Part shown: positions 17,246 through 60,885 of the stretch, one piece after another
Position numbering within the stretch: the first letter of the stretch is position 1
Layout: the number at the start of each line of letters is the position of its first letter
NCBI GenBank assembly: GCA_965287045.1
Contig: OZ336871.1
Coordinates: 94,240,001 to 94,304,000, forward strand
Direction: 5' to 3'
DNA length: 64,000 bases
From: Carcharhinus amblyrhynchos
Taxonomy: Eukaryota
Notes under the pieces: model-generated
Database searches by the model: none
The model's input: only the letters and a program-made list of their open reading frames with translations
What the model was told of the DNA's origin: nothing
Program-made: the position numbers and the translations under genes

Positions 17246-18253
17246 TTTGCGGCAGTAGAGATGACTCGCTATTGGCCATTGTCAAAAGAACATAAGAACT
17301 AAGAGCAGGAGTAGGTCATCTGGCCCCTCGAGCCAGATTTCATGTCGCTGGGAAACCCATGGTAGGGGTGTGCCATTGGCGGAACCGGAAGATCATGCTG
17401 ATATGAAACAGCTGGAAAGTTACAGCCATAGATCCTTACAGCACTTTGACCCATTGTTTCTATGCTAGTCATTATGCACCTGTCCATTTTAATCCCATTT
17501 TTCAGCACTTGATGCGTAGCCTTGTTATATGCAGCAATGCAACACAATTTAGAGTCATAGAGGTTTACAGCATGGACACAGGCCCTTTGGCCTAACTTGT
17601 CCATGCCACCTTTTTTTTTAAACCCCTAAGCTAATCCCAATTTCCAGCATTTTGCCCATATCCCTCTGTACCCATTGTACCCATGTAACTATCTAAATGC
17701 TTTTTAAAAGACAAAATTTTATGTGCCTCTACTATTACCTCTAGCAGCTTGTTCTAGACACTCACCACCCTCTGTGTGAAAAAACTGCCCCTCTGGACAC
17801 TTCTGTTTCTCTCCCATCTCACCTTAAACCTATGCCCTCTAGTTTTAGACTTCCCTACCTTTAGGAAAAGATATTGACTATTTAGCTGATCTATGCCCCT
17901 CATTATTTTATAGACCTCTATAAGGTCACCCCTCAGCCTCCTGCGCTCCACAGACAAAAGTCCCAGTCTATCCAGCCTCTCCTTATAACTCAATCCATCA
18001 AGACCCAGTAGGATCCTAGTAAATCTTTTCTGCATTCTTTCTAGTTTAATAATATCCTTTCTATAATAGGGTGACCAGAATTGCACACAGCATTCCAAGT
18101 GTGGCCTTACCAATGTCTTGTACAACTTCAGCAAGGCATCCCAACTCCTGTATTCAATGTTCTGATGTGGGAATGCCGGCGTTGGACTGGCGTAAACACA
18201 GTAAAAAGTCTGACAACACCAGGTTTTAGTCCAACCGATTTATTTGATAATAC

Positions 18254-18291
18254 TCACAAGCTTTCGAGGGGACTGCCTCTTCGTCAGGTGA
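18254..18291 (-). ncRNA. Minimal type-I hammerhead ribozyme motif (intact core)
   Basis: TCAC-CTGACGA-A-GAGG-cagtcc-CCTC-GAAA-GCT-T-GTGA: stem I TCAC/GTGA, stem II GAGG/CCTC, palindromic AGCT in place of stem III. Confidence 0.8.
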
Positions 18292-18307
18292 ATGGAGAGT
18301 TCTCCAT

Positions 18308-18345
18308 TCACCTGACAAAGAGGCAGTCCCCTCGAAAGCTTGTGA
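18308..18345 (+). ncRNA. Hammerhead motif with core mutation (CTGACAA)
   Basis: Mirror of 18254-18291, but G8 changed to A in the CUGANGA box. Confidence 0.65.
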
Positions 18346-18432
18346 GTATTATCAAATAAATCGGTTGGATTAAAACCTGGTGTTGTCAGACTTTTTCAGT
18401 GTTCTGACCAGTGAAACCAAGCATGCCGAATG

Positions 18433-28839: not shown

Positions 28840-29369
28840 ATAATAAGCAGGTGTTCTGAATTCAGGAAATGACATCTCCAACGAATTGTGATAATTTAAA
28901 GTAAATTTTTATTAAAAAACAAAAATTACACTTAAATAAGAATGTCTTCACATCGTTAATGGTATTTTAAAATAAAGTTCCAAAAGATCTTAATCTAGTC
29001 TATCCTCAGAGCTAACCTTTCCTTTTCTGCTTGGCAACAATCTGTATACATTATTAAATCTATAAAATTCCAGTAATTTTATCATGCCGTGTCCTTTTGC
29101 TCTTGGGGTGTCCTCTGAGGCTGACAGTAACTGGCTGTCCAGCTCTGGCCTTGTCCACATTGTCATCTGGGAGATATAAATAGTCATTGCCACCCCCCCA
29201 CCCCACCTCCTCCTCCTCACTCCACACCATTCACATGGGCTTCAGTGTTTTCTAAAATGCGTTCCTTCCCTTTAACCTCTCGATCTTCCATTGTTTCATC
29301 TTGTCTTTCAGAAATGCTGTTTCCCCAGACCAGATCTAATTCCTTTATTTACTTCAGCTAATGTAACTA

Positions 29370-29560
29370 AAGGGCTAATTAACAGACAGAAAGCAGAGGT
29401 CAGGGATAAATGGACATTTTGAAGTTGGCAGGCTTTAATTATCAAAGTGCCTCAAGGATGAATGTTGAGGCCTCAACTAGTTGCAATCTATATTAATGAT
29501 TTTGATGAAGTGACAAAGTTACGTTTCAAAATTTGTTGATCATACAAAGCTAGATAAGAT
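29370..29560 (+). mobile_element. Old CR1 RT fragment
   Basis: Decayed R.Q.V.ING...VPQG...LRPQL...IYINDFDE...SKFVDHTK. Confidence 0.65.
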
Positions 29561-30179
29561 TTGGGAAGACACGATCTTACCTGCCATTCATGCCACACTC
29601 CCACTGCAGCACGATGGGATGGGATAATCTCACAAGTGTGAACCATGGTAAGACTCAGGCCAAAATGTTCAGAGAGATGTAGAAAGCTTATGAGCGGTGA
29701 ATAAGTTGACAGATGGAGTATAATGAGCTGGTTTTCTGCAGAGTCAGGAAGACTCCAGGGACCTTTAAAACTGCCGGATGGGATCTGGATGCAGATACCA
29801 CCATCCTGACAGACCCAGATTTTCCCTGGCAGGGAAAGACAGCAGGGTGGGTGCAGGGTGTTGTTCACACATGCATGAAACCCAAATTCAGCAAGGCCAT
29901 TTGAGTTCAGTGCTGAGTTCAGGGTTCATGTAGACCCAGGTTGGCTAGTCCAAAAGTCTGAAGCCTGCAATGTGGAAATCACAAACTGATGGAATAGACA
30001 CAAATACTCTTGAAGGGTGGCTGATGATCTGTACAACTGTTATGATTTGAAGTATTTTTAAGTGCCCCACTCTTCTAAATTAAAAAAAAATCAGGCTGTA
30101 ATTATCATTGAGAGTTAAATGTAAACCCATTAACAGGGTTAGGTGAGAAAAACAACAGTATCTTCTAATGGTACAATTT

Positions 30180-30653
30180 AAACATCCTTTCTGGTTGTAT
30201 CACAGCTTGGTATGGGTCCTGCTTTGTCCAAGACCACAAGGAAATTAAAAAGGTTGTCGATGTAGCCCAATCCATCACGCAAACCCACCTCCCATCCATT
30301 GACTCTGTCTACACTTCCCGCTGCCTCAGCAAAGCATCCAGCATAATTAAGGACCCCACACATCCTGGACATTCTCTCTTCCACCTTCTTCCTTCGGGAA
30401 AAAGATACAAAAGTCTGAGGTCACGTACCAACCAATTCAAGAACAGCTTCTTCCCTGCTGCTGTCAGAGTTTTGAATGAACTTGCCTTGCATAAAGTTGA
30501 TTTTCTCTACACCCTACGACTGTAACATTACATTCTGCACTCTCTTGTTTCCTTCTCTATGAATGGTATGTTTTGTCTATATAGCGTGCAAGAAACAATA
30601 CTTTTCACTGTATGTTAATATATGTGACAATAATAAATCAAATCAAATCAAAT
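30180..30653 (+). mobile_element. Rex1/Babar LINE 3' fragment
   Basis: CITAWYGSC...SIDSVYTSRCLSKASSIIKDPTHPGHSLFHLLPSGKRYKSLRS; (AAATC)3 tail. Confidence 0.9.
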
Positions 30654-31280
30654 AGACCTTTGTTGACATTTCTCTATCATTATGTCTTTATGAATAGTTG
30701 GCTGACTTTCAAAAGCTACTACCTCCTCCGCAGCTAGTATGCAGGGTCCTGTTGATGATTGCCCAGCAAATCATTGCTCACTAATGTTATTTAAAAGGGT
30801 AGGCTTGTCACAGAGTGTTGGGATTCTTCCCATTTGGCACCAGATTAGTGTGCAAACCTAACAAGTGATTGCTCTAGCTGGACAAACAGTTGGAACCTTA
30901 TTTATGTTTTGTGCCACTAATGTGTGCGTTTTTGGCTAGTTAAACTCCAGTAGTACACCTGCACACATAACACTCTGGCAATCTGACTGTAGGTTCTCAG
31001 AATTTGGCCCACTGGTTTGTGTCTCTTAATGGAGAGAATGTGTACTCTGCAGTGGGAAAACATAAATTGTACATGTATAAACTTCTCAGCAGCTTGTGTC
31101 AGAGGATCTTATGAATGGTGATAGGCTTTTGTATTTGTTCAGTTCTTGCCAAATCAAAAAAAAATGAATCACTTGTTTGCAAATGAGCATTATCCCTGCA
31201 AACCTTTTAAATTATATCCTTCAGGTATATTCTCATATCTTGTCAATGATGATCACTTCTAACAAATTCTCTTCATTTTA

Positions 31281-31634
31281 ATTTGATTTATTATTTATAT
31301 GTGTTAGTATACAGTGAAAAGTACTGTGTCTTGCGTGTGTACAGACAAAGCATAATGTTCATAGAGAAGGAAACGAGAGAATGCAAAATATAGTGTTACA
31401 GTCATAGCAAGTGTGTAGAGAAAGAACAACTTAACGCAGGGTAAGTCCATTCAAAAGTCTGATAGCAACAGGGAAGAAGCTGTTTTTGAGTCGGTTGGAA
31501 TGTGACCTCAGACTTTTACATCTTTTTCCAATGGAAGAGAGAATGCCTAGGGTGTGTGTGGTCCTTAATAATGCTGGCTGCTTTGTCGAGGCAGCAGAAA
31601 GTGTAGATAGAGTCAATGGATGGGAGGCTGGTTT
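31281..31634 (-). mobile_element. Rex1/Babar LINE 3' fragment
   Basis: GKRCKSLRSHSNRLKNSFFPVAIRLLNG; homologous 3' UTR. Confidence 0.88.
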
Positions 31635-32265
31635 AAATTCACCACAGCTATTTTGTATGAGAATATTTTATAACTAAGTACTAATTAACACTGGCAAATA
31701 GTCATCTGCTATCTTCTCAACTCTAAAATATCTTCTGCCTTTGGGCTTATAGATTCAACATTTAGAAGAAAAAAAATGTGCACACTCTGGTGCTCACAGA
31801 AATATTTAAACACTACAGAAATAATTGAACTAATTTATGATTCTATTCAGATGCTGTAATTAGAGTAATGCCTCAGATTCATTGGGTTCAAATTTGGTGC
31901 CTTCAGGTGAGTCAATTCTCATTTGGTTAGTTTGCCTATTTGACTGTCAGTTGCAAATAGCTTTGTTCAGTTCTTTAATTTATATATTTATTCACCAGTC
32001 CAGGTGCAAACTCAGATGGGTCTATGATTAACGCAAATGACATGTGAGGGAAATTTCATATATTGGCATTTACTGTGGTAGGGAAAATTAAAGTGTCACA
32101 GGCCAGTATCTCTGTTGATCCAAAGTGTTGAGAAGATAGGGCCCACAGCATTCCCATGTTGATTTGTCAGAGCTGACAGAAATGGCGACTAGCATTTTGC
32201 TGCAGCCAAACAGGTAATACTAAGTCTTAACCACCTTAGCATGCTATCTTTCATTCATAACCTGC

Positions 32266-32612
32266 CTTTTCTTTTATTCATTTGTGGGACATGGGCATCG
32301 CTGGCGGGCCATCCCTATTTCCCAAGGACATTTAAGAGTCAACCACATTGCTGTGGCTCTGGAATCACATGTAGGCCAGACCGGGTAAAAATAGCAGATT
32401 TCCTTCCTAAAGGACATGAGTGAACCAGATGGGTTTTTCCAACAATCGACAATGGTTTCATGGTCATCAATAGATTCTTAATTCCAAATTTTTTTTATTG
32501 AATTCAAATTCCACTAGCTGCCATAATGGGATTTGAACTCGGTCCCCAGAACATGAGCTGAGTTTCTAGATTAATAGTCCAGCAATAATATCACTAGTCC
32601 ATTGCCTCCCCC
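32266..32612 (-). mobile_element. Second tRNA-derived SINE family copy
   Basis: Homologous to 49130-49447 and 25322-25632. Confidence 0.85.
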
Positions 32613-33222
32613 GCATACCCATAAGATGGGAAACATAGCAGCGCTCTTCCCTGTTCATTCCTGTATCAGTCAATGCAGCTTCCAGCCGTTTGAAGCAATA
32701 TATTTAAATGCTGATCCTATGACCAAAAAATAGGGTGTTTCTCTTGCTGAATTTCCTGGGTAGTAAAGCCCCATTTGTCTGAAGATGGGACAGTAGCAAG
32801 ATAAAGATAAACCTTATTCAATGTTTGAGTTAATAGTCTCAACGTTACCCTCTCAAGATGGGTGGGAGAAAGTAAGAGGGGCGGGGATGAATAAATGTGA
32901 GGAATGCATTTTTATGGTGGCATATTGGGCCAATCAAATAACCTCCCATGGAGAGATTCAACCCTGTAAATATCTGGGTCCAAGAGGAAAGTGGGAGTGA
33001 AAATCTCGTTTGTAAATTTCAAGCAAAGAATGCAGGATTTATAATTATTGGTAATTCAGCAATTGGTAATTGTTTTCCAATACCATATACCATGGGTGGA
33101 AATCTACCAAAATGCAACAAAGCATTATAATGGTAGGAAAACTGGAGCGATTAGCACTAGGTTAGTTTCTCATGTATGTTCTGCACCACAATCATCCTAC
33201 ACTCAGTCATTTTTTGGAGCAG

Positions 33223-33502
33223 TGATGTGGAGTTGCCAGCATTGGACTGGAGTGGGCACAGTAATTAGTCTCACAACACCAGGTTAAAGTCCAACAGGTT
33301 TATTTAGTAGCATGCGCTTTTGGAGCGCTGCTCCTTCATCGGTGATTGCCTGATGATGAAGCACTCACTGAAGGAGCACTGATGAAGCCACTCACCTGAT
33401 GAAGGAGCAGTGCTTCGAAAGCTCATGCTACCAAATAAACCCGTTGGACTTTAACCTGGTGATGTGAGACAACTTACTGTCCAACCCGGCAACTCCACAT
33501 CA
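33223..33502. mobile_element. Fold-back Penelope-like element end (second subfamily) with TSD
   Basis: Termini TGATGTGGAGTTGCC / GGCAACTCCACATCA; imperfect arms; TSD TTTTTTGGAGCAG (33210-33222) / TTTTTTGGAGGAG (33503-33515). Confidence 0.85.
33393..33427 (+). ncRNA. Minimal type-I hammerhead ribozyme motif
   Basis: CAC-CTGATGA-A-GGAGC-agt-GCTTC-GAAA-GCT-C-ATG; core intact, stem I weakened (ATG for GTG). Confidence 0.7.
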
Positions 33503-36500
33503 TTTTTTGGAGGAGAGTTTCGTGCCAATGCTGGGGGGGTGTGGAGGGTGTGGGGGGGTGGGTGCATCAGGACGTAAACACACTAGTAATCCCAGCTTCA
33601 GAGTGCTCAGGCGCCGCTTTGCAAGGGTGTCCCGATTTCAGTGCACTGGGAGAAGCCCGCCCACCTCCAATGGGCATTGGGATCCTCCCTTATCAGTGAC
33701 ATGTTCCCCCAAACTCTTCCTCTTGCAGGCTACAAGCATCAGGGCTCCGATGGGTCCCTCTGCCTGACCCCAACATAATCCCCATTCATGACCCGAACAT
33801 GATCCATCCCTGCATGATCTCTTATTGCAGCCTCCATTCAGGCCCCAACTCCCTGGCACTTCCCCGGCACACAGGCAGTGCTCAGCTGGTACTGCTGGAG
33901 TGTCTGGTGTGCATTGTCATGTGGGCTGTGTCCAATGGACACCACCTCACCAAGCTCTGGACCACCATGGGGCTTCAGTGGCCTCTCAGCTCTTGATGTG
34001 GCCACTGCATCAGGTCCCTGATAGTGGAGGCCAGCAGTAATCCCTCCCCCACCCCCTCATCTTGTGTCATGCCTGAAGGCCAGAGGATCCAGTGCGCTGG
34101 GAGTCAAATGGGCTATGCATATTTAAATGCTATTTTAAATCCCTTTCTGGGTGCAATTTGTGCCATTAAGAAGGGGCAGGGAGGACTGCCAACTGTTTGG
34201 CACTATGTGCAATATCTATTTTTAGGCCCGCTTGCTACTGTCCGGGATCAGCGCAATTCGCATAGGTGCGAGGAGATCGGAAAATCGGCCACCATATTAT
34301 TCTTATTTCTTTTCATTTTAATCTACATGCCAAAATCAGAAAATTTCAGCATACTTACAATTTACCTGTATTAGATTTACAAAGAGGTAAAATGTATTCA
34401 GAGTACCACCCTTTCAATTCTAGGACCGAATTTTGAAACACATTTGGATTAATAGATCCACCCTTCACAACTGGGTAAGTGAAATGTATTTGAACAACTC
34501 TCTGTGGATTTCCTTATGTCTTGTAACTTGGAATATTGACACTAAATTGACAGTCTTGCTATGGGTTGTATGCTACAGGAACAGCAGCAGCTAAAGTAAT
34601 GGAAATGTCATAATGGCGTTGTAGAAATGTTCTCTAAGATCGATGCAGCAGTCTATTGTCATGTCAGAGTGACAGACAGTTATTCTGTATCTGACTGTGT
34701 TCTATTACTGGGAGTGCTTATTAGGAAATTGGGTGCATCTTGCTCTCTGCAATCTTCCATCTTTTTGATTTTAATGAATTCCCAGCATGTGCTCCTACAG
34801 GTGCACAAAGCTTTGTGCTAGGAATGCACAACGTGCAAATATTTACTCCATAATGTTTTATTCAGTAGTTTAATTTCCAACGTTACGCTACCTGAAATTT
34901 ATCAAGTATTCCAATTTTCAGCCTTTTTGAATTCAGGTCCAAAAATCAGGTGAAAGCAGCTGTAAGGAAATGTGTGCTTTGGAGGTCAGTAATAAAACAG
35001 TTCATGTAAGCCAAATAACTTCAAGTGTAATCACGTTTAAACAGAAATACGATGATGTAAGGAACAAAAGTGAACCCAGGATTTAAGCCATGGATTAAAT
35101 AAAAACATAATGGGAGTTGTTTTGTTGTATGGCAAGTGTAAAATTAACAATTTTGTATGAGGTGCCCATTCTATATTTTCATCCAATTTCCATTTTCATT
35201 GAAGTTATATATTTATTAATGCATCAGAAAATAACGGAGAGTCATTTTAGGCAACTGTGTCCCAAATGTTAGTGGTGTGGTGTAATTTCAGAATGAAAAT
35301 ACTTAAAATACACTTATGTTCTTATGTTCTTATATTCACCAAGTACAGTGTGAAAATTCGACATGCATTGTTAATCATGCCCTTTGTGTTATCAAAACTT
35401 CAGCTGGTTGCAGGTGATTGAAGGAACGCACAACATCACTGCTACCAATCAGCACTGAGAGAAGCTCAAACTCTCCCTTGTCCAAATAGGTAAAGCAACT
35501 TTATATGTCAATGCATAGCTATAACACATTGCCACCACAATCAGTCTTAACCTTAATTTTGGAATTTTTCTTTTGAGAGAGCCATTATTGAACTTTCGGC
35601 TAAAATATCTCATTGATTCCTCGGTCTATTAGGCAATCTTTCCATCAGCAAAGTTTAGATGCTGTTGAATAACTCATCTTGTATAATGATAACAACATGT
35701 AGGTTTAAATGTTTTGTCTTGCTGAGGACCAGACCAAAAACTCCAATGTATGTTATACCATTAGCCTGGACCCCAAAATTTGCACTTGATTTTGGCATTA
35801 GGGTGAGCACAAGGTATTTTGCTCCAGTATGTTTCAATTGACCCATTACAAAGCTGTTATGAAAACAAACTTTATTTAAGAACACAGACTATAGTATAAT
35901 TCTTAACAACTAGCAATCCCTATAATGACAGAAAGGGCCACCCCTCTCTACAGGTTCCAAAACAGCAACTAACCTTGAATTCTCTGTGTAAACCTGGCTC
36001 CATTAAGTCATATCACCTTACTTGTCAATCAACCAGATTACATCCTACTCTGCAAAACCCCAGGGGGTTCACTAAGAACACAAAACAGCATTAGTCCAGA
36101 TTAAAATACACATTCTAGCAAATAGAAGCTATTATGCTGCAGCAGCAACAACACAGAGTTGCTGGATGTAGATAAACTGGCATAAAAAGAAACTGCTAAA
36201 ACAGATCCTGCACAAGAAACAGACAACCACATTTCTTAAAGCTCAGTATTGTCTCATTCTTGCCACCAATACTACCTAACTGGCTGAGATCTGTATTGGC
36301 AACATTTTCTGTTTAATTTCAGATTTCCAGCATTGACAGTATTTTGCCTTTATATTAAGGTGCTAGAGTTTGTATTGGATGACCAAGGGATCTGGAATTT
36401 TTGGATGGTGAGTTTTCACTTCCTGCCATACTGACTCTTTGCTGACTGAGAGTGCCATGCAGATATTTCATGCTCAAATGAACATTAATTTACTCCAGGT

Positions 36501-38693: not shown

Positions 38694-41566
38694 GAACATA
38701 GAACATAAACATAGAACATAGAACATTACAGCGCAGAACAGGCCCTTCGGCCCACGATGTTGCGCCGACCAGTTACAAAAACAATGACCCACTAGCCTAT
38801 ACCAATCCCTTTTCGTCCATAAACCTATCCAGAGATCTCTTAAACGCCCCCAAACTAGACGCATTTACAACTGCAGCAGGCAGGGCATTCCAATCCCTCA
38901 CCACCCGCTGGGTAAAGAACCTACCCCTGACATCCGTCCTGTAGCTACCCCCCCTTAATTTAAAGCCATGCCCCCTCGTGCTAGCTTTCTCCATCCGAGG
39001 AAAAAGGCTATCACTATCCACCCTATCTAAACCTCTAATCATCTTATATGTTTCAATAAGATCCCCTCTTAGCCGCCTTCTTTCCAATGAAAACAACCCT
39101 AGATCCCTCAGTCTCTCCTCATAGGACCTCCCCACCATACCAGGCAACATCCTAGTAAACCTCCTCTGCACCCTCTCCAACGCCTCCACATCCTTCTTGT
39201 AATGCGGGGACCAGAACTGCACACAGTACTCCAAGTGCGGCCGCACTAGAGTAGTGTACAGTTGCAACATTACACTGCGACTCCTAAATTCAATCCCCCT
39301 ACCAATAAACGCCAAGACACCGTACGCCTTCTTGACAACCTTATCTACTTGATTCCCAACTTTCAGGGATCTATGTACACACACACCTAGATCCCTCTGT
39401 TCATCCACACTATTCAAAGCCCTCCCGTTAGCCCTATACTCGACACATCTGTTGCTCCTACCAAAGTGAATTACCTCACACTTCTCCGCATTAAATTCCA
39501 TCCGCCACCTCTCGGCCCAGCTCTGCAACCTATCTAAGTCTCCCTGCAGACTATGACACCCTTCCTCACAATCTACCACACCTCCAACTTTGGTGTCATC
39601 AGCAAATTTACTAATCCACCCAACTATACCCTCATCCAGATCATTAATAAAAATTACAAACAACAGTGGCCCCAAAACAGATCCCTGAGGCACACCACTC
39701 GTAACTGCACTCCATGATGAATATTTACCATCCACCACCACCCTCTGTCTCCTATCTGATAGCCAATTCCTGATCCAACTTCCTAGATTACCCACAATCC
39801 CATACATCTGCATTTTCTGCAGAAGCCTCCCATGGTGAACCTTATCGAACGCCTTACTAAAATCCATGTATACCACGTCAACTGCCTTACCCCTATCCAC
39901 CTCTTTGGTCACCTTCTCAAAAAACTCAATAAGGTTAGTAAGGCACGACCTACCTGCTACAAAACCATGCTGACTATTTCTAATCAATTCATTACACTCC
40001 AAATAACTATAAATCCTATCCCTAATAATTTTTTCTAAAACCTTGCCCACAACAGAAGTAAGACTCACCGGTCTATAATTCCCGGCAAAGTCTCTGTTCC
40101 CCTTCTTAAACAATGGGACAACATTCGCTATCCTCCAATCCTCCGGGACTACACCAGAGACCAATGACGACCTGAAGATCTGAGCCAGAGGCTCTGCAAT
40201 CACCTCTCTAGCCTCCCAGAGAATCCTAGGGTAGATCCCATCCGGACCAGGGGACTTATCTATTTTCAGCCCCTCAAGAATTTCCAGCACATCCTCTTTA
40301 TCAACCGTAATACTGTCTATTTTACACCCCTGCAACCCAATGTCCTCCTCAGCTATATTCATGTCCCCCTGCGTGAACACCGAAGAGAAATATTGGTTCA
40401 ATACTTCTCCAATCTCCTCCGGTTCCACACACAACTTCCCCCTGCTGTCTGTAACTGGCCCTAATCTTGCCCTGACCAACCTTCTGTTCTTGACATACTT
40501 ATAGAACGCCTTAGGATTCTCCTTAATCCTATCAGCCAAAGTCTTCTCATGTCCTCTTTTAGCCCTTCTCAACTCACTCTTCAACTCCCTCCTAGCCAAT
40601 CTAAAGCTTTCTAGTGCACTTACTGAGCCCTCCAATCTCATCCGAACATAAGCCTCCTTTTTCTTTTTAACCATTGACTCAACTCTTTTAGTGCACCACG
40701 GTTCCCTAGATCTACCAAATCCACCATGCCTGACAGGGACATACCTATCAAGGACTCGCAGTAGCTGCTCCTTGAAAAAACTCCACATTTCAGACGTTCC
40801 CAGTCCCTGTAATCCCCTAATCCAATCCATGCGTCCTAATTCACTCCTGATAGCCTCATAATCGCCCTTACCCCAGCTAAAATTGCTGACCCGAGGTTCA
40901 TGCCTATCTCTTCCCATCACTAAGGTGAACGTAACCGAATTGTGGTCACTATCACCAAAATGCACACCAACTTCCAAGTCTAGCACCTGGTCTGGCTCAT
41001 TTCCCAGCACCAAATCCAATATAGCCTCACCTCTAGTTGGCCTGTCTACATACTGAGACAAAAAACCTTCCTGCACGCTTTGTACAAACACTGACCCCTC
41101 TAGCGAGCTAGAACTATAGCAACTCCAATCAATATTCGTAAAGTTAAAGTCCCCCATAACAATTACCCTATTACTTTCACTCCTAACCAGGATTGTCTCC
41201 GCAATCCTTTCCTCAACCTCTCTAGAACTTTTAGGAGGTCTATAAAAGACTCCCAACAGGGTGACCTCTCCTCTCCTATTTCTAATCTCCGCCCATACTA
41301 CCTCAACTGACAAGTCCTCATCAAACTTTCTCTCCGACACTGTGATACAGTCCTTGACTAGCAATGCTACCCCACCCCCCCTTCTACCTTCTTCTCTACT
41401 CCGACTAAAGCATTTGTACCCCGGAACCTGCAACATCCATTCCTGACCCTGCTCTATCCATGTCTCAGAAATGGCCACAACATCAAAGTCCCAGGTACTG
41501 ATCCACGCTGCAAGTTCATCCACTTTATTGCGAATACTCCTCGCATTAAAGTACACGCATTTCAGT
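38694..41566 (-). mobile_element. Young CR1 LINE truncated at the start of ORF2
   Basis: Complete ORF2, short 3' UTR, (GTTCTAT)n tail at 38694-38726; no ORF1 or 5' UTR. Confidence 0.97.
38797..41556 (-). CDS. CR1 ORF2: APE endonuclease plus reverse transcriptase, 919 aa, uninterrupted
   Basis: APE motifs NARS, SETW, GGGV, YRPP, GDFN, SDH; RT motifs KSPGPDG, NYRPVSLTS, QHGF, DFSKAFD, GVPQGSVLGP, FADD. Listed start is GTG, with no upstream in-frame ATG. Confidence 0.95.
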   Translation of the reverse strand: MYFNARSIRNKVDELAAWISTWDFDVVAISETWIEQGQEWMLQVPGYKCFSRSREEGRRGGGVALLVKDCITVSERKFDEDLSVEVVWAEIRNRRGEVTLLGVFYRPPKSSREVEERIAETILVRSESNRVIVMGDFNFTNIDWSCYSSSSLEGSVFVQSVQEGFLSQYVDRPTRGEAILDLVLGNEPDQVLDLEVGVHFGDSDHNSVTFTLVMGRDRHEPRVSNFSWGKGDYEAIRSELGRMDWIRGLQGLGTSEMWSFFKEQLLRVLDRYVPVRHGGFGRSREPWCTKRVESMVKKKKEAYVRMRLEGSVSALESFRLARRELKSELRRAKRGHEKTLADRIKENPKAFYKYVKNRRLVRARLGPVTDSRGKLCVEPEEIGEVLNQYFSSVFTQGDMNIAEEDIGLQGCKIDSITVDKEDVLEILEGLKIDKSPGPDGIYPRILWEAREVIAEPLAQIFRSSLVSGVVPEDWRIANVVPLFKKGNRDFAGNYRPVSLTSVVGKVLEKIIRDRIYSYLECNELIRNSQHGFVAGRSCLTNLIEFFEKVTKEVDRGKAVDVVYMDFSKAFDKVHHGRLLQKMQMYGIVGNLGSWIRNWLSDRRQRVVVDGKYSSWSAVTSGVPQGSVLGPLLFVIFINDLDEGIVGWISKFADDTKVGGVVDCEEGCHSLQGDLDRLQSWAERWRMEFNAEKCEVIHFGRSNRCVEYRANGRALNSVDEQRDLGVCVHRSLKVGNQVDKVVKKAYGVLAFIGRGIEFRSRSVMLQLYTTLVRPHLEYCVQFWSPHYKKDVEALERVQRRFTRMLPGMVGRSYEERLRDLGLFSLERRRLRGDLIETYKMIRGLDRVDSDSLFPRMEKASTRGHGFKLRGGSYRTDVRGRFFTQRVVRDWNALPAAVVNASSLGAFKRSLDRFMDEKGLV

Positions 41567-41813
41567 TTTTGGTATGTAACATATCAAGTTAGTTATATCA
41601 ACTTGCAGGTTGTGATTGAACTTGCACATCAAGAAAGTTGAAGTTCCTACCACAGATTTCTCTGGGTCACTCTGCAAGGCTTCTGTCGGTGTAGGCAGCT
41701 AGTGCGCTTGATTTGCCACTGAGTGCAAAGTCCTGGCCACAAATCCTCAACATTTGTGCAATTTTGAACAAAATGCATTACCAGTTGCCGATTGCACTCA
41801 AAAGTGGAAGTCT

Positions 41814-59952: not shown

Positions 59953-60234
59953 TAGCTGAAATGTAGAGGCCAAGTTTGAGGATGTATCTGATTTTGATAT
60001 TGGTTTGAGCGAAGTGTTGTGATGACTAAATTGATTGACAATGACAGAGTTATGAATTAATGGGAGAAGCTAAGCTTGCAGCAAAGAAAAAGGTTTCAGT
60101 TTCATTATAAAATACAAGCAATTGCTACCTGAGCTGCCAGAAGAAAGCAGCGTCTGTCTGTCTGTCTCTCTCTCCAAAGTAAAAAGTCTGACAACACCAG
60201 GTTTTAGTCCAACCGATTTATTTGATAGTAAACG

Positions 60235-60268
60235 CACAAGCTTTCGGGGTTAGTCCCTTCGTCAGGTG
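60235..60268 (-). ncRNA. Minimal type-I hammerhead ribozyme motif (antisense arm)
   Basis: Reverse complement identical to 60559-60592. Confidence 0.78.
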
Positions 60269-60558
60269 AATGGAGAGTTCTGGCCTCAGACAGAGCATAT
60301 AAAGCACAGACTGTTTAGAGATTACTGATTAGAATGCGAATCCTTACACTGACTTGCCTGGGTTTGCAAAACCTCACTTACTGTACTGTCTGGAGACAAT
60401 ACACATCTCTGTAACCTGTGATCAGTGCTCCTTCCACTCACATTGTCAGCCACTTCAGGTCTTGAACAGCAGGTTAGGTGTAAGGATTCGCATTCTAATC
60501 AGTAATCTCTAAACAGTCTGTGCTTTATATGCTCTGTCTGAGGCCAGAACCCTCCATT

Positions 60559-60592
60559 CACCTGACGAAGGGACTAACCCCGAAAGCTTGTG
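60559..60592 (+). ncRNA. Minimal type-I hammerhead ribozyme motif
   Basis: CAC-CTGACGA-A-GGG-actaac-CCC-GAAA-GCT-T-GTG, followed by AATAAA at 60605. Confidence 0.8.
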
Positions 60593-60885
60593 CGTTTACT
60601 ATCAAATAAATCGGTTGGACTAAAACCTGGTGTTGTCAGACTTTTTACTGTGTTTACGCCAGTCCAACGCCGGCATACCCACATCATCTCTCTCCAAAGG
60701 CATTCTGAAAGCTCTAAACTTGGTAACCCAAGTCAAAGTAAGTAAATCTGTGTTTTGCTAACTAATTTTAAAGAGAGGTTTAAGTCTATAGGAGAAATAT
60801 TGTTTGATTGGAACTTACAGTTGGATTGTTTAAGTATTGTTCAATTCATTTGTTATAGTTAAATTGCATTGTTAAATAACTTTGC

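Follow-up and report, generated by a model that had tools for sequence, protein, structure and literature searches.

The window analysed here, a stretch of 64,000 nucleotides of Carcharhinus amblyrhynchos contig OZ336871.1, harbours an insert of 507 bp at 60180-60686 that is bordered by identical 13-mers (60167-60179 and 60687-60699). Two inverted arms of 172 nt each (60178-60349 and 60478-60649) differ by a single mismatch (60276/60551), and a repeat search extends the pair to 175 nt at 99% identity; the boundary of the left arm is ambiguous by 2 nt, as its outer 2 nt also belong to the target-site duplication (TSD). The arms are separated by a loop of 128 nt (60350-60477), and a tail of 37 nt (60650-60686) lies outside the pairing. 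The insert, its arms, TSD and tail, and the hammerhead motif and AATAAA found in each arm had been listed in the original prediction, and all of them are present in the sequence. The features of the locus, which include parts of a Penelope-like element (PLE) and its pLTR, are as follows.

60167..60179, no strand: 5' TSD of 13 bp, an exact repeat that is present as one copy in the empty-site contigs of runs X15 and X16/X18
60180..60349, minus strand: inverted, tailless, 5'-truncated pLTR copy, spanning about -208 to -33 from the tail end
60217..60222, minus strand: AATAAA of the left arm, read from the sequence
60235..60268, minus strand: minimal type-I hammerhead motif of the left arm, mirroring 60559-60592, with the cut predicted after 60238
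60350..60686, plus strand: 337 nt out of the 342-nt 3' UTR/pLTR of the parent PLE, tail included, with top genome matches at 98-100%
60350..60477, plus strand: unpaired central loop, a UTR segment contained in one arm only, next to the genome-unique junction 60349/60350
60523..60556, plus strand: TATA-like AT run (60525-60530) and 5'-end pile-up of the family (about 60542-60559), a candidate promoter and transcription start
60559..60592, plus strand: minimal type-I hammerhead motif of the right arm, with the cut predicted after T60589
60605..60610, plus strand: AATAAA followed by a GT-rich stretch, a candidate polyadenylation signal
60650..60686, plus strand: PLE tail of 37 nt, present in one arm only, based on sequence and family comparison
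60687..60699, no strand: 3' TSD of 13 bp, an exact repeat, supported by the empty-site contigs

Contigs of the public runs X15, X16 and X18, which represent two samples and two organism codes (X16 and X18 stem from one sample), link 60146 to 60687 with 18-20 letters in between and contain neither the 507 bp nor one of the TSD copies; their flanks differ from the window at 5 and 11 positions in 297 nt. Since these empty-site contigs carry a single 13-mer and no insert, both the insertion and its TSD are shown directly, which bears out the recent insertion that had been proposed from the window alone. The right part of the insert differs from its nearest genomic copy (L006) at only one position, which is private to the insert, as befits a young insertion; one private change per 337 nt is too few for an age in years to be derived.

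Among the 30 open reading frames of at least 110 aa in the window, only LINE-like frames were recognised by eye, one of which (38797-41583, minus strand, 928 codons) resembles an intact LINE ORF comprising endonuclease and reverse transcriptase (RT). The window also contains two further fold-back structures. A second stub of the same PLE family but with a different stem-II variant (18163-18403) is situated inside a LINE; its arms extend to about 141 and 137 nt, counted from the tail end, and in one of them G8 of the hammerhead core is changed to A. The other structure (33223-33480) is an older back-to-back remnant, at about 79%, that belongs to a related PLE family; it has a hammerhead motif at 33396 and, at its centre, a short stretch that is repeated.

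Using the insert as query against the genome (2.92 Gb) yielded 920 candidates, and most of the 40 that were scored match its last 337 nt at 98-100%. These 337 nt begin 6 bp past the stop codon of the parent element, and their last base is the A of the ATG of the next unit. The copies extend upstream of this unit by variable lengths into one shared ORF, which in one copy comprises 850 open codons stopping 6 bp before the unit. An intact ORF of 893 aa is found in 5 of the 20 long copies fetched, in the arrangement pLTR-ORF-pLTR, and one of these five is a tandem with a period of 3,024 and a 342-nt UTR that ends at the next ATG. The encoded protein matches RVT_1 (Pfam, E=1e-9) and, at 22.7-23.7 bits against a cutoff of 22.6, GIY-YIG; it displays the motifs DKG, GTAMG and YIDD, while a PDB sequence search with it returned no match. 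The original prediction had supposed a PLE origin and a GIY-YIG/RT parent sharing the ends of the insert, and the genome search recovered such a parent; the ends match this retroelement ORF and not a DNA transposon with a transposase. A single ORF with RT followed by a C-terminal GIY-YIG domain and pLTRs arising from partial tandems (the pLTR-ORF-pLTR copies and the tandem of period 3,024) are both features of endonuclease-containing (EN+) PLEs, as are the inverted 5'-truncated copy, the 30-40-nt tail at one end and the TSD treated below. The zinc-finger linker preceding GIY-YIG has the form CX4CxxC (aa 755-763), and a CX2-5CxxC linker at this place is described for the Neptune and Nematis clades (PMC8557442). 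By its linker sequence the parent is a putative Neptune-type PLE, and we favour Neptune over Nematis only because a preprint reports Neptune and Poseidon in vertebrates (bioRxiv 10.64898/2026.07.22.740005). Close to one near-full-length PLE copy lies a frame of 203 codons (L031:7037-7645, minus strand) that we take to resemble a retroviral envelope fragment; this locus shares at least 4.3 kb at 99.6% with locus L037, by its sequence likely a segmental duplication.

The insert resembles the insertion units of EN+ PLEs, for which an inverted 5'-truncated pLTR, a tail of 30-40 nt and a TSD have been described (PMC3846280 for Pen2a_Av; PMC8557442, Fig. 2; PMC8969392), in its head-to-head inverted pLTR, its 37-nt tail at one end and its short TSD, and its family resembles them in the TATA-like run of the pLTR and in full-length copies that are partial tandems. 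It differs from the units described there in being truncated so far that no ORF remains, in a TSD of 12-13 bp rather than 8-10 bp and in a tail whose end lies at the ATG and not within the ORF. Fold-back architecture and PLE hammerheads are thus already published, including opposite-strand hammerhead pairs 100-700 bp apart (PMC4209133), and the insert is a stub of a known kind.

It had further been proposed that the insert is a recently mobile, protein-free cassette. This part of the original prediction is not supported, because the inversion junction occurs only once in 2.9 Gb, with up to one mismatch allowed, and the junctions of the other tabulated copies differ, which argues that the fold-back was made at insertion and was not spread as a unit. 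Two further readings were rejected. A DNA transposon or MITE does not fit a junction that occurs once, since a non-autonomous family of that kind would comprise numerous copies built alike inside, and a non-LTR retrozyme requires at least two tandem hammerhead units on the same strand, where those of the insert lie on opposite strands. A self-propagating, non-autonomous hammerhead mini-element akin to retrozymes or MITEs could account for a non-coding, TSD-flanked sequence with long terminal inverted repeats, and three other copies do span most of the insert at 91-93%. PLE-derived retrozymes occur in vertebrates, with a mean of 363 bp in the one chondrichthyan sampled, and the insert shares with them its non-coding nature, derivation from a pLTR, type-I hammerhead and a unit of about 340 nt (bioRxiv 10.64898/2026.07.22.740005). 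It is unlike the retrozymes of that preprint, which are by definition tandem same-strand hammerhead repeats, in being an inverted pair that has no second sense hammerhead and is not amplified as a unit. Given that copies of similar size have other junctions, that copy lengths form a continuum up to the full ORF and that the ends match a retroelement ORF, we regard this mini-element as highly improbable. The family is young and retains intact ORFs, and the individual insert is an ordinary truncated PLE insertion.

As predicted, a minimal type-I hammerhead in the pLTR, together with the inverted pLTR and the tail, is found in the insert and in the family at large. In the right arm the motif consists of a stem I of 3 bp, CUGACGA, a bulged A, a stem II of 3 bp with a 6-nt loop, GAAA and a palindromic AGCU. 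The insert hence contains the core of minimal hammerheads, CUGANGA-N, GAAA and UH with a palindromic 15.2-16.2, and like the metazoan PLE hammerheads reported by Cervera and De la Pena (2014; PMC4209133) it combines CUGANGA, a bulged base before stem II, G10.1-C11.1 and the palindrome with the lack of helix III and a stem II that varies within the genome. The stem II of 3-5 bp found here is shorter than the 7-8 bp given for S. mansoni (PMC4209133). T60589, the proposed cleavage site, corresponds to position 17 by the established hammerhead numbering convention, and a cut there is predicted from the sequence.

In the genome there are 1,565 occurrences of the exact 34-mer and 0 of its reversed control, so the motif is not a product of chance; a relaxed motif gives 28,924 matches and a flank-anchored pattern 34,245, again with 0 for each reversed control. 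By these counts the genome contains about 29,000-34,000 motifs of the minimal hammerhead type, contributed by several PLE families, against about 4,000 in coelacanth and about 9,000 in Xenopus, figures obtained with different descriptors and therefore not strictly comparable (PMC4209133). Conservation of CTGANGA and GAAA across copies, which had been anticipated, was seen in the 100 listed matches of the flank-anchored pattern and a 23-row alignment, where the core is kept barring scattered G-to-A changes, mostly after C. The Rfam check that had been suggested went the other way, with no hammerhead match at E<=10 over the insert, which is unsurprising for a motif lacking helix III; the hammerhead call consequently rests on pattern and covariation. 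In 42 pLTR copies found via the ORF, stem/loop II differs in 27% of cells compared with 2-4% in the flanks, and stem pairing is kept in 93.4% of 196 cells, a value reached in 0 of 500 shuffles and compared with 18-58% in slid controls. Pair 19-30 switches between GC (11) and AU (10), and stem I shows no two-sided change; the rows are related copies and represent few independent events. By this covariation the motif is structurally constrained in the family. The AATAAA is conserved in the same 42 copies, with 1 differing cell in 252.

Among young copies (L058-L077, L138-L167) stem/loop II is about 10 times more variable than the flanking pLTR without loss of pairing, and within one element the 5' pLTR may differ from the 3' pLTR in its variant (L058, L064, L072, L157-L159), hinting at template mixing or at selection at the RNA level.

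Transcription of the insert from either side had been expected to yield a hammerhead whose self-cleavage competes with duplex formation. The predicted folds do not support such a competition: the full hairpin reaches -361 or -379 kcal/mol depending on the strand, and the probability of the hammerhead pairs is 0.0 on both strands, nascent prefix included. As the antisense arm is transcribed first on either strand, the hammerhead pairs are predicted not to form in read-through RNA, which is predicted to lock the motif into the 172-bp duplex and to be a substrate for double-stranded RNA pathways rather than a ribozyme. Minimal hammerheads are moreover thought to need a dimer in cis, with no cleavage reported for monomers and weak cleavage for dimers (PMC4209133), and such a dimer is impossible in the insert because its two hammerheads sit on opposite strands. 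The motif would be freed only in an outward transcript begun inside an arm. The hammerheads would be passengers brought along from the pLTR.

An outward transcript of this kind is the premise of a different reading, by which the insert acts as an active bidirectional promoter that releases short arm RNAs with a free hammerhead and AATAAA, which might be cleaved with the aid of PLE protein or of a second transcript in trans. In the whole single arm stem II is predicted at 0.6 and stem I at just 0.05, the subfamily of the insert has the shortest stems aligned (3+3 bp compared with up to 5+4 bp in relatives), and the CUU triplet is a less favoured hammerhead cleavage site, all of which speak against efficient cleavage of such RNAs. 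The isolated motif does fold, with a predicted stem II probability of 0.6-0.9, the 29,000-34,000 related motifs offer possible partners in trans, and the TATA-like run is retained in either arm, as is the zone between -128 and -145 in which arm ends of the family pile up. Bidirectional promoter motifs have been suggested for pLTRs (PMC3846280), and the hammerhead of the Anolis element PAc cleaves only in the presence of protein (PMC11167929). On balance we consider promoter activity of this sort quite unlikely. Contigs from four runs presumed to be RNA, a form that cannot show transcript starts, ends or editing, contained no GT..AG joint inside the pLTR and so lent no support to an intron around the hammerhead.

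To place the insert within its family, 90 loci were chosen by the exact hammerhead from the first megabases of two contigs, a non-random sample, and 77 remained after removal of 13 that were duplicates or were replaced by wider stretches. Simple back-to-back pairs make up 54 of these loci and other builds the remaining 23. In 47 of the 54 pairs, out of the 77 loci, one arm reaches the tail end and the other stops 22-45 nt short of it, a build with a tailed and a tailless arm that is the already published insertion form of PLEs, and 33 of the 47 carry a TSD of 12-13 bp. The two arms are joined with an overlap of 1-7 nt in 26 of the 54 pairs, flush in 8 and with extra bases in 20. Their lengths correlate (rho 0.59), and both arms share a stem-II variant in 15 of 21 rows (shuffled mean 3.9, maximum 10), two of these rows representing one insertion. 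The tailed arm is longer in 23 of the 47 loci and the tailless arm in 22, by more than 10 nt in 14 of them, for example 60 nt tailed against 1127 nt tailless; arm lengths near 128 nt are imprecise in this table, as the reference has a different stem II. At one locus (L189, G000:C1:137070600-137077600) the inversion junction contains several tandem repeats of a 33-nt piece of the ORF, a sequence pattern that suggests repeated template jumps during joining.

The arrangement recalls PAc/Poseidon of Anolis, whose protein cleaves as well as extends both strands, from two start sites that flank the tail (Frangieh et al., 2024; PMC11167929). The shark family likewise exhibits two end classes that bound the tail and, as with PAc, no sign of cut RNA as template. 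In contrast to PAc, it has a CX4CxxC linker of the Neptune/Nematis type, and its end classes are located in the 5' leader, at and upstream of the ATG, and not within the ORF, where PAc has its starts (PMC11167929).

The insert very probably consists of two back-to-back, 5'-truncated 3' ends of a young autonomous PLE that arose in one insertion by two primings and came to a dead end. The protein of the element would cut the target with a stagger of 13 bases, and reverse transcription would be primed from both cut ends. The first cDNA would start at the tail end (ATG) and run 337 nt, the second would start about 33-39 nt further in and run 170 nt, both templated by the same or a sister uncleaved RNA, and the two truncated cDNAs would then be joined head to head. 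Double priming is likely on the strength of copy anatomy, with the biochemistry of PAc as a parallel. The stub is likely a dead end, given its unique junction and, by analogy, the absence of the ORF sequence 3' of the start sites that PAc requires (PMC11167929); the unique junction is also compatible with rare re-mobilisation, which may have occurred in other individuals.

The same PLE origin could be combined with an inverted arm generated by snap-back self-priming of one cDNA or from an antisense template, as proposed for PLEs (self-priming, PMC3846280) and for rotifer Penelope elements (antisense template). The correlated arm lengths and the stem-II variants common to both arms would fit such an origin, and so would the insert taken alone, whose junction lacks microhomology and whose tailed arm exceeds the tailless one in length. 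Self-copying of a cDNA primed at the tail end, however, cannot produce a longer tailless arm, as is needed for 22 of the 47 loci, nor can a cDNA begun at the inner site include the tail; more complex snap-back variants may escape this by jumping back to the RNA. We therefore judge self-priming or an antisense template to be unlikely. Two target-primed cDNAs remain the best reading because one self-folding cDNA cannot yield the longer tailless arm, and the shared stem-II variants and correlated lengths point to templates of the same lineage.

Where the cDNAs end was assessed with a 33-nt end probe that has about 25,000 exact matches in the genome. Of the first 100 listed matches 98 were fetched, and dropping duplicates and arms with less than 400 nt of upstream sequence left 92 arms, aligned to better references. 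The predicted cut is crossed by 81 of the 92 arms, and ends within 2 nt of it number 2, the background rate; this absence of an excess at the cut argues for uncleaved templates. Between 128 and 145 nt from the tail end, in contrast, 19 of the 92 arms terminate, whereas the following 105 nt contain 12 ends (p 3e-9) and the 54 nt before the zone 21 (p 0.002), p values that are too small because arms of one insertion are not independent. In a second set of 124 arms, which is selection-biased to at least 128 nt, the figures are 31 against 39. The zone sits 16-33 nt downstream of the TATA-like run, a sequence arrangement that suggests a candidate transcription start. The arms of the insert end at -336 and -208, past this zone, and the insert is for this reason derived from a downstream pLTR.

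A broader model, which we advance tentatively and hold to be somewhat more doubtful than not, is that the thousands of stubs in the genome record the mechanism of the PLE itself, with independent priming of both strands of a 12-13-nt staggered cut, at the two sites that flank the tail and on uncut RNA, and with a pile-up that marks the start of transcription in the pLTR. The smallest palindromes would then result from run-off copying of the 5' leader of the mRNA itself; polyadenylation at the AATAAA of the pLTR would deprive unit-length mRNA of the priming sites at its 3' end, so that only read-through or tandem RNA would yield long copies such as the 507-bp insert. If true, this would account both for the need of PLEs for more-than-unit copies and for the great abundance of tiny hammerhead palindromes. 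A literature search of mostly open-access texts without supplements found neither a double-priming or transcription-start run-off model, which may nonetheless be in print, nor a paper on PLE hammerheads in sharks.

Taken together, the origin of the inverted pLTR and tail of PLEs and the role of their hammerheads are questions flagged in PMC8557442 and PMC11167929, and the family described here is a good test system for them, being young, with intact ORFs, thousands of end-probe matches and clean TSDs. The statistics of its copies speak for two primings with uncleaved RNA as template and indicate a candidate transcription start, and PLE stubs of this kind could widely give rise to long perfect hairpins in the read-through RNA of the host.
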